Shown here in pieces: positions 1-207 of a stretch of 207 nucleotides of DNA. The first letter of the stretch is position 1; the number at the start of each line of letters is the position of its first letter. The translations under genes were made by a program, and so were the position numbers. A model generated the notes under the pieces. The model worked only from the letters and a program-made list of their open reading frames with translations, was not told where the DNA came from and did not search any database. Source of the DNA: Escherichia coli (GTDB taxonomy: Bacteria > Pseudomonadota > Gammaproteobacteria > Enterobacterales > Enterobacteriaceae). The stretch lies in NCBI RefSeq assembly GCF_003334255.1, contig NZ_QOWU01000283.1; one strand, written 5' to 3'.

Positions 1-207
1 CGTGCTGACTTATCTGATGGAACTTTACCAGATGGATTTTGCTGAACTTTCTGAAGCAGTATCCACACACTATCCCAGCCACAAGGGGGTGATCATGACG
101 ATAGCAGAGCAACTGGAAGAGAAAGGTCTGGAGAAAGGTCGTGCTGAAGAGCGCTCCAGATTAGTGCTCATGATGAGACAAAAGGGAAAATCTCTGGAGG
201 AAATCAA
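1..207 (+). CDS. Partial CDS (internal fragment, codon phase starts at base 2): C-terminal region of an Rpn-family (YhgA-like, PDDEXK_7/Transposase_31) recombination-promoting nuclease; paralog not assignable
   Basis: Frame starting at base 2 is open across the window (68 codons), translating to VLTYLMELYQMDFAELSEAVSTHYPSHKGVIMTIAEQLEEKGLEKGRAEERSRLVLMMRQKGKSLEEI. + strand frames 1 and 3 hit stops early (TGA at 43-45 and 42-44). The MTIAEQL start followed by a charged tail with G-spaced repeats (EEKG-LEKG-R) matches the Rpn C-terminal tail as I recall it. Family assignment is from memory, not from a database search. Confidence 0.7.
83..91 (+). promoter_or_regulatory. Internal Shine-Dalgarno / ribosome-binding site for the ATG at 95
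   Basis: AAGGGGGTG differs from the consensus TAAGGAGGTG core at one position (G for A, still able to G-U pair with the anti-SD). It is the only SD-like purine run in the window placed correctly before an ATG. In the host frame it encodes K-G-V. Confidence 0.45.
95..207 (+). CDS. Candidate nested in-frame small ORF (RpnS-like intragenic antitoxin / C-terminal tail protein), 3' end beyond window
   Basis: In-frame ATG at 95-97 is preceded by a strong SD (AAGGGGGTG, 83-91), leaving about 5 nt between the AGGGGG core and the ATG. Product would begin MTIAEQLEEKGLEKGRAEERSRLVLMMRQKGKSLEEI. Internal translation starts producing small tail proteins are described for E. coli rpn genes. Whether this start is used cannot be shown from sequence alone. 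Confidence 0.4.
   Translation, partial: MTIAEQLEEKGLEKGRAEERSRLVLMMRQKGKSLEEI
119..142 (+). repeat. Tandem direct repeat, 2 x 12 bp (GAGAAAGGTCTG / GAGAAAGGTCGT), in-frame, encoding EKGL-EKGR
   Basis: Seen directly: positions 119-130 and 131-142 are identical at the first 10 of 12 bases. Each unit is four codons in the coding frame, so a unit gain or loss would keep the reading frame. Confidence 0.6.

Follow-up and report, generated by a model that had tools for sequence, protein, structure and literature searches.

An RpnS-Type Internal Start Site Predicted in the 3′ Region of an Rpn Toxin Gene on an Integrating Conjugative Element of Escherichia coli

An rpn Paralogue on an Integrating Conjugative Element

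We consider it highly probable that the 207-nt stretch of Escherichia coli DNA studied here (contig NZ_QOWU01000283.1; at its full length referred to as the window) represents the 3′ region of an Rpn toxin gene carried by an integrating conjugative element (ICE), in which an extended Shine–Dalgarno sequence (SD) and the ATG at positions 95–97 (ATG95) start a 66-aa RpnS antitoxin in frame with the long toxin protein, RpnL. Such an arrangement has a published precedent: in each of the five rpn genes of E. coli K-12, initiation at an internal site gives rise to a small protein, RpnS, from the C-terminal part, and RpnS neutralizes the toxic full-length RpnL (Zhong et al. 2023, PNAS, PMC10400941).

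Frame 2 of the window is free of stops through all 68 codons and contains ATG95, and the forward frames 1 and 3 are closed by stops. Compared with E. coli chromosomes, the window shows 100% identity in strains 2015C-3121 and STEC2018-553 (the exact-match genomes) and 99.5% identity in 13 more, the sole base change in the latter being ATC to ATT at window base 93; searches of a plasmid collection and of a phage collection returned zero matches to the window. The rpn paralogue that holds it is present in 53 of 5426 complete E. coli genomes (about 1%). At the eight E. coli loci inspected, the gene is flanked by ssb and pilL and lies on an ICE, the gene content of which includes members of the PFL_4669, STY4534, and TIGR03759 families as well as traD.

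The 311-aa protein that holds the 99.5% copy of the window (in strains such as S19-651) is recognized by TIGR01784 with 115.7 bits (cut-off 52.1), and by PF04754 (Transposase_31, YhgA-like) over residues 12–205 with an E value of 3.4e-59. The window is located 3′ of this N-terminal PD-(D/E)XK/Transposase_31 domain, which the partial copy in the exact-match genomes (see below) lacks. Since the score against the RpnA equivalog model NF007361 does not reach the threshold (201.7 bits vs. a cut-off of 583), the protein is not an RpnA orthologue; its nearest relatives beyond its own cluster share 77% identity, and the next ones 49% or lower. Judged by these comparisons, the host gene is a distinct, uncharacterized Rpn paralogue and not the orthologue of any K-12 Rpn. 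Residues D11, D63, E82, and Q84 are essential in RpnA (Kingston et al. 2017, PMC5350276); they align with D13, D65, E85, and Q87 here, and are invariant across 24 homologues. Because the residues essential in RpnA are both present and invariant, the long protein RpnL is probably an active nuclease.

A second precomputed Pfam domain, PF27070, is found in most Rpn homologues of 45% identity or lower and is absent from the ICE clade and its relatives of 49–77% identity, which suggests that the C-terminal region of the ICE clade falls outside the PF27070 model. The protein has a weak match to DUF433 (E value 0.018), and a phmmer search of the full-length protein against the PDB gave noise only.

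An Extended Shine–Dalgarno Sequence in Front of an In-Frame ATG

A first reading of the window, made from its letters alone (the sequence-only reading), had pointed to a near-consensus SD, AAGGGGGTG at positions 83–91, in front of the in-frame ATG95 within a continuous open reading frame (ORF). This is confirmed, and the pairing is in fact longer than had been claimed: AAGGGGGTGATC pairs through 12 consecutive bases (83–94) with the 3′ tail of the 16S rRNA (5′-GAUCACCUCCUUA-3′), with a duplex energy of −17.5 to −19.6 kcal/mol that varies with the window folded. The GGGGG core occupies positions 85–89, so that 5 nt separate it from the A of ATG95.

By anti-SD energy, the site ranks first among the 305 in-frame positions of the full gene, and only 1.7% of the synonymous recodings of the six upstream codons, SHKGVI, match its SD energy (p = 0.017). 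The control set consisted of 73 long ORFs within 131 kb of E. coli K-12 sequence: not one of their 674 internal in-frame ATGs was preceded by a site with an anti-SD energy of −10 or lower, none of their 30,390 internal codon positions equaled the −14.8 of the window, and strong internal anti-SD sites were depleted. The combination of SD and ATG is thus confirmed as an observation beyond chance. The sequence-only reading had further stated that SD-like sequences are depleted inside coding regions because they stall ribosomes; the depletion is seen in these K-12 ORFs, but ribosome stalling as the reason for it is contested. The change in protein character that it had noted at the ATG is real: the linker gives way at this Met to a predicted three-helix C-terminal domain.

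The Start Site in the rpn Family

We aligned the K-12 rpn genes with the ICE gene at the protein and DNA levels. Met246, encoded by ATG95, aligns with Met244 of RpnA, and K242/G243 align with RpnA K240/E241 (HKGVIMTIAEQL in the ICE protein, HKESLMTIAERL in RpnA); in RpnA, the combined replacements K240R, E241D, and M244L abolish RpnAS (Zhong et al. 2023, PMC10400941). In the DNA, the codons leading into the start read CAC AAG GAG AGT TTA ATG in rpnA and CAC AAG GGG GTG ATC ATG in the window, with the SD in the same register, a register that holds AAGGAG in rpnB, rpnE, and ypaA, GGGGAG in rpnC, and AGGGAG in rpnD. The crystallized RpnA-S chain (PDB 7TH0) starts at the aligned Met, and this Met together with the motif M-T-x-A-x-x-L is invariant in 24 homologues of 38–81% identity (MTIAEQLE in the window). 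The proposal of an RpnS-type gene within a gene is therefore supported, by the Rpn-like nature of the host ORF (TIGR01784, PF04754) as well as by the alignment of ATG95 with RpnA Met244.

Conservation of the SD at synonymous positions among homologues had been named in the sequence-only reading as a check whose failure would refute it, and its outcome is positive in 83 rpn genes (80 loci, with one genome per species, plus K-12 and the ICE gene). The residues at codons −4 and −3 vary (E, K, G, or R at the former; D, E, or G at the latter), whereas a purine core of GGAG, GAGG, or AAGGAG is kept by codon choice. At codon −4, Glu is encoded by GAG in all 23 cases, Lys by AAG in 16 of 17, Gly by GGA or GGG in all 40, and Arg by AGG or CGG; elsewhere in the same 83 genes, GAG accounts for 39% of Glu, AAG for 39% of Lys, and GGA and GGG together for 31% of Gly codons. 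Averaged over the genes, the sequence preceding the Met has an anti-SD energy of −7.23 kcal/mol, compared with −4.24 ± 0.27 under the synonymous null (0/2000 resamplings), and a set of 12 representatives below 60% identity gives −8.48 against −4.76 ± 0.71 (again 0/2000). The position of the Met is the most SD-rich point in the whole rpn gene alignment. At the level of codon statistics, it is thus confirmed that codon choice keeps the SD beyond amino-acid need across the rpn family, as selection on an RNA signal predicts; it is the change of amino acids at −4 and −3 under a constant purine core that points to such selection.

The family profile contains a second, weaker SD-like dip at codons −24 to −21 from the Met, which corresponds to a Q-A-G-E motif (e.g., CAG GCG GGA GAG). 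We rejected this as a second start: its Gly codon is mostly the ordinary GGC, no conserved start lies downstream, and it is absent from the window. The Gly-Glu site of this motif, about 20 codons upstream, was used as an internal negative control.

The Predicted Small Protein and Its Repeats

The full predicted product of 66 aa is MTIAEQLEEKGLEKGRAEERSRLVLMMRQKGKSLEEIKDFLDLTDEQLLQALDYVPVQRNGALNQD. Near its N-terminus, a direct string search found the common string GAGAAAGGTC at 119–128 and again at 131–140, within two 12-nt direct repeats (table 1); Tandem Repeats Finder made no call on the window, two units of 12 nt being too short. Repeats of four amino acids that begin 8–20 residues past the Met, vary between strains, and set the specificity of RpnL/RpnS pairing have been described for the family (Zhong et al. 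2023, PMC10400941), and the EKGL and EKGR units are this published hypervariable four-residue repeat. Its variation is also evident among the strains: at the eight E. coli loci, RpnS measures 62, 66, 70, or 74 aa with one type of tail (type 1) and 61, 69, or 77 aa with the other (type 2), and RpnS lengths at 78 other loci differ mostly in steps of four.

An AlphaFold2 model of the 66-aa product has helices at residues 3–29, 34–41, and 45–53, with a mean predicted local distance difference test score (pLDDT) of 76.8; the modeled fold is consistent with RpnA-S without being decisive. Several database hits were set aside: a profile-search match to 7TH0 is circular, RpnA-S itself being in the profile; the top profile-search matches to designed repeat proteins and pentatricopeptide repeat (PPR) proteins are repeat or low-complexity artefacts; and a weak DpdH match of the small protein in PADLOC is spurious.

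Tandem 3′ Copies and Their Variation between Strains

The two exact-match genomes carry the window in a second, partial 3′ copy of about 420 bp downstream of the full-length gene: the last ~115 codons and the intrinsic terminator have been tandemly duplicated with 97% identity, and the copy is labeled by the NCBI annotation pipeline (PGAP) as a 122-aa "transposase." The resident full-length gene in these genomes is one repeat shorter, with an RpnS of 62 aa against 66 aa in the duplicate. The nested two-protein arrangement proposed in the sequence-only reading therefore holds for the 99.5% copies but not for the 100% matches, where the window sits in a truncated 3′ duplicate; the exact-match copy is most probably a small gene of the rpnSs/ypaA type that stands nearly alone, preceded by a vestigial ORF.

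The number of downstream copies differs between strains, with none in APEC E19035, one in most, and two in SCU-171. Within one genome, the full-length gene and the downstream copy are usually unequal, either in RpnS length (62/66, 74/66, and 77/61 aa; 56/61 in K-12) or in tail type, as in S19-651, where the tail type of the downstream copy is unlike that of the full-length gene; SCU-171 (L089), in which all three small ORFs are identical with 70 aa, is the only matched case. Every full or partial copy keeps AAGGGGGTGAT[C/T]ATG except one in NCTC9112, where the downstream copy (L090 2683–2701) has GGGGGGATT for GGGGGTGATT: one nucleotide is missing within or beside the SD, and the upstream frame is closed as a result. 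This deletion may be genuine or may stem from a sequencing error in a homopolymer. In this strain, PGAP starts a 66-aa coding sequence (CDS; "DUF433 domain-containing protein") exactly at the ATG discussed here. Downstream copies also occur in Rahnella, Rouxiella, Azoarcus, and another Escherichia; these keep the SD and the same ATG, and their upstream frame is closed 3–92 codons earlier.

Each rpn copy, full or partial, ends in its own GC-rich hairpin followed by a T-run, which resembles an intrinsic terminator. The duplication unit includes this terminator, and the downstream copy is therefore bracketed by two terminators.

The exact 66-aa protein was also found as a gene on at least 12 contigs; the three ENA metagenome scaffolds that were checked (L094, L095, and L096) contain N-gaps in the tandem-repeat region. 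These interrupt the sequence upstream of the 66-aa ORF, which is for this reason predicted as a lone gene; such gene calls are assembly artefacts, and we did not rely on them. Short-read assemblies evidently fragment at this locus because of the tandem rpn 3′ duplication.

Table 1. Features of the window and of the loci that contain it. Plain positions refer to the window; positions preceded by an L number are those of the respective genomic locus (L001, exact match; L002, 99.5% match).
Feature	Position	Strand	Remarks
Open reading frame (frame 2)	2–207	+	Residues 215–282 of the 311-aa ICE-borne RpnL (99.5% copy)
Same frame-2 ORF in the exact-match genomes	2–207	+	Residues 26–93 of the 122-aa remnant ORF, downstream partial copy
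RpnL linker from the PD-(D/E)XK/Transposase_31 domain to the C-terminal domain	2–94	+	PF04754 match ends at residue 205; variable linker
Extended SD, AAGGGGGTGATC	83–94	+	12 nt pairing with the 16S rRNA 3′ tail, one G·U
ATG, internal translation initiation site (predicted in this paralogue)	95–97	+	Met246 of RpnL = Met1 of the 66-aa RpnS
First 37 codons of the RpnS-type small protein	95–207	+	Long helix 1 and start of helix 2 (predicted)
Two 12-nt direct repeats, GAGAAAGGTCTG and GAGAAAGGTCGT	119–142	+	Encode EKGL and EKGR, from residue 9 of the small protein
Exact match of the window	L001 6001–6207		Within CDS 5927–6295
99.5% match of the window	L002 6001–6207		Within CDS 5360–6295
Tandemly duplicated 3′ unit	L001 5506–5915 and 5936–6356		Last ~115 codons and intrinsic terminator
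Hairpins with T-run	L001 5886–5906, 6327–6347; L002 6327–6347, 6786–6813
ATGs of full-length gene/downstream copy	L001 5665/6095; L002 6095/6536; L088 2236/2666; L090 2236/2701; L092 2236/2666; L093 2736/3166; L085		L085: rpnE/ypaA
Gene annotated "restriction endonuclease"	L001 9686–10285; L002 10149–10748		Same ICE

Other Features of the Window and the Element

A structured RNA element in the window was ruled out: an Rfam scan matched no RNA family, and the predicted fold of the window RNA is no better than that of shuffled sequences (z = 0.57). An antisense ORF of 45 aa with a TTG start (window 70–207, minus strand) lies opposite the conserved coding frame and is unsupported. On the same ICE, a gene annotated as "restriction endonuclease" is located about 3.4–3.9 kb downstream; with an rpn gene and an annotated restriction endonuclease, the nuclease or defense repertoire of the element may extend beyond a single function.

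Discussion

Several observations weigh against the interpretation of the window as part of a working RpnL/RpnS pair. In both strength and length, the SD far exceeds those of the verified members of the family (about −18 to −20 vs. −7 to −12 kcal/mol), and because over-long SD pairing can slow the clearance of ribosomes from a start site, its output is not assumed to scale with its strength. PADLOC has no model for RpnL, and the small protein resembles RpnA-S only weakly: a Foldseek search against 350,542 PDB chains gave 7TH0 as the top match, at an E value of 0.57 and TM scores of 0.39/0.52, and a single-sequence phmmer comparison of the small protein with 7TH0 gave an E value of 0.53. The Pfam domain DUF4351 (PF14261) has no match to the protein at E ≤ 10, an annotation that holds in some species only and is not strictly defining (Zhong et al. 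2023, PMC10400941). Scans for sigma-70 promoters upstream of the ATG found only weak candidates, such as ATGGCA-16-TATCGT ending at window base 3, and no convincing promoter. Differential RNA sequencing (dRNA-seq) has mapped the onset of transcription to sites within every K-12 rpn gene (Zhong et al. 2023, PMC10400941), and by analogy an internal promoter would be expected here at 2–94 or just upstream. Finally, the exact-match copy is placed right after an intrinsic terminator, and its repeat mismatch with the resident gene (66 vs. 62 aa) could prevent it from neutralizing the resident RpnL, given that one extra repeat abolished neutralization in the RpnC experiment of Zhong et al. (2023, PMC10400941).

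An alternative is that the exact-match copy is a silent, decaying remnant: an untranscribed partial tandem duplicate in which SD and ATG are inherited from the functional parent but not used, and which at most supplies sequence for recombination into the 3′ end of the full-length gene. The terminator directly upstream and the lack of a good detectable promoter would fit this, as would the annotation of the copy as a mere "transposase" fragment and the variation of downstream copies between strains, in number (0, 1, or 2), in tail type, and in one case through the 1-nt deletion upstream of the ATG. We nonetheless regard a remnant as unlikely. The copy retains ~165 nt upstream of the ATG, the intact SD, the 66-codon frame, and its own terminator, all at 97% identity; downstream copies in other genera likewise retain the SD; and tagging has demonstrated that the product of K-12 ypaA (rpnESs), an annotated pseudogene, is synthesized (Zhong et al. 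2023, PMC10400941). Transcription also starts inside the K-12 rpn genes, and a duplicate of this length could carry such a start.

The published repeat-matching rule implies that mismatched stand-alone copies should not neutralize their own RpnL. A rather speculative extension, to which we give a similarly low weight, is that downstream copies with a mismatch in repeat or tail form a cassette system, either as donors for the recombinational switching of RpnL/RpnS specificity (a programmed diversification) or as immunity against non-self Rpn toxins on competing conjugative elements.

It is very improbable that the SD-like run and the ATG merely follow from the H-K-G-V-I-M sequence and that no internal initiation takes place. 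K-G-V can be encoded as AAG GGG GTG in the absence of selection, and the Met and MTIAE could be conserved for structure alone, but this would leave aside that codon choice preserves the purine core throughout the 83 genes (0/2000 in the synonymous resampling), that the control Gly-Glu site of the same genes shows no such bias, that no position in the K-12 control is as strong, and that the aligned RpnA site is experimentally verified. Least credible is a role of the AGGGGG run as an internal anti-SD pause or a frameshift stimulator of the prfB or dnaX kind instead of a start signal: AGGGGG is the hexamer of the prfB frameshift stimulator and an out-of-frame TGA lies at 90–92, yet there is no slippery heptamer, both alternative frames stop within a few codons and thus give no extended product, and the conserved partner of the SD in the family is the in-frame ATG at a fixed spacing.

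Under internal initiation, the reading that we prefer, ribosomes would bind the extended SD at 83–94 and begin translation at ATG95, in the reading frame of the long protein. The product would be the 66-aa RpnS, which has the same sequence as the C-terminal domain of RpnL (307–311 aa at full length). By analogy with E. coli RpnA, RpnB, RpnC, and RpnP2, it may form a three-helix bundle, bind the identical domain of RpnL by way of its long first helix, and inhibit the toxic PD-(D/E)XK DNA endonuclease; the count of four-residue repeats at 119–142 would tune which RpnS fits which RpnL. The small transcript would be driven by a promoter of its own, and positions 2–94, besides encoding the linker, would form its 5′ leader. 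In the exact-match genomes, the copy in the ~420-bp tandem duplicate would act as a separate gene of the rpnSs/ypaA type and not as a nested one. The system may serve phage defense or the stabilization of the element. The SD and ATG, the homology and register, the family-wide conservation of the SD, the repeat polymorphism, the duplication, and the intact catalytic motif of RpnL were observed directly; from what is published on the family (Zhong et al. 2023) we infer translation from ATG95 in this paralogue, binding and neutralization of RpnL, the promoter of the small transcript, and a role against phages or in stabilizing the element.

The closest known counterpart is the RpnA L/S pair (Zhong et al. 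2023; PDB 7TH0), with which the ICE gene shares the PF04754/TIGR01784 nuclease domain including the equivalents of D11, D63, E82, and Q84, the in-frame internal Met within MTIAE, an SD at codons −4 and −3 (AAG GAG in rpnA, AAG GGG here), and a small helical C-terminal product, which is predicted here. It differs in its identity of only ~40% to the K-12 paralogues, in an RpnS of 66 aa instead of 49, with four-residue repeats and a 13-residue C-terminal extension that RpnA-S lacks, in its much stronger SD with 12-nt complementarity, and in its location on an ICE and not in the chromosomal core; it is also known from sequence alone.

The downstream copies have parallels in rpnE–ypaA (rpnESs) and rpnC–rpnCSs, where a partial 3′ duplicate right downstream of a full-length rpn gene has likewise kept the SD and ATG (Zhong et al. 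2023); as in rpnE–ypaA, the two copies are one repeat apart (RpnES 56 vs. YpaA 61 aa in K-12; 62 vs. 66 aa here). The duplicate described here extends further upstream than ypaA, with 59 open codons before the ATG compared with about 4, and has its own copy of the terminator; in contrast to these two pairs, the copy number varies from 0 to 2, and some strains have a different tail type in the downstream copy. With RpnP2 L/S, the ICE gene shares the location of an Rpn on a mobile element. RpnP2 is plasmid-borne, whereas the ICE paralogue has no match in the plasmid collection, and the two are likened by description and not by sequence. RpnP2 L/S is the one family member with demonstrated phage defense (Zhong et al. 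2023, PMC10400941).

The gene-within-a-gene arrangement as such was published in 2023, and what is new here is an uncharacterized ICE-borne paralogue, not a new kind of system. The RpnL/RpnS arrangement proved recognizable in 207 bases of raw sequence, and it is extended to a paralogue found in about 1% of complete E. coli genomes. The family-wide comparison adds a quantitative test in which the SD is upheld by codon choice across changing amino acids; we found no comparable synonymous test of the SD in the main text of Zhong et al. (2023, PMC10400941). There is also a consequence for annotation: the loci are labeled "transposase," "hypothetical protein," or "DUF433 domain-containing protein," and no annotation marks the 66-aa product nested in the full-length gene. 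Lastly, the repeat mismatch between full-length genes and their downstream copies bears on a question left by the 2023 study, namely what purpose the separate rpnSs copies serve.

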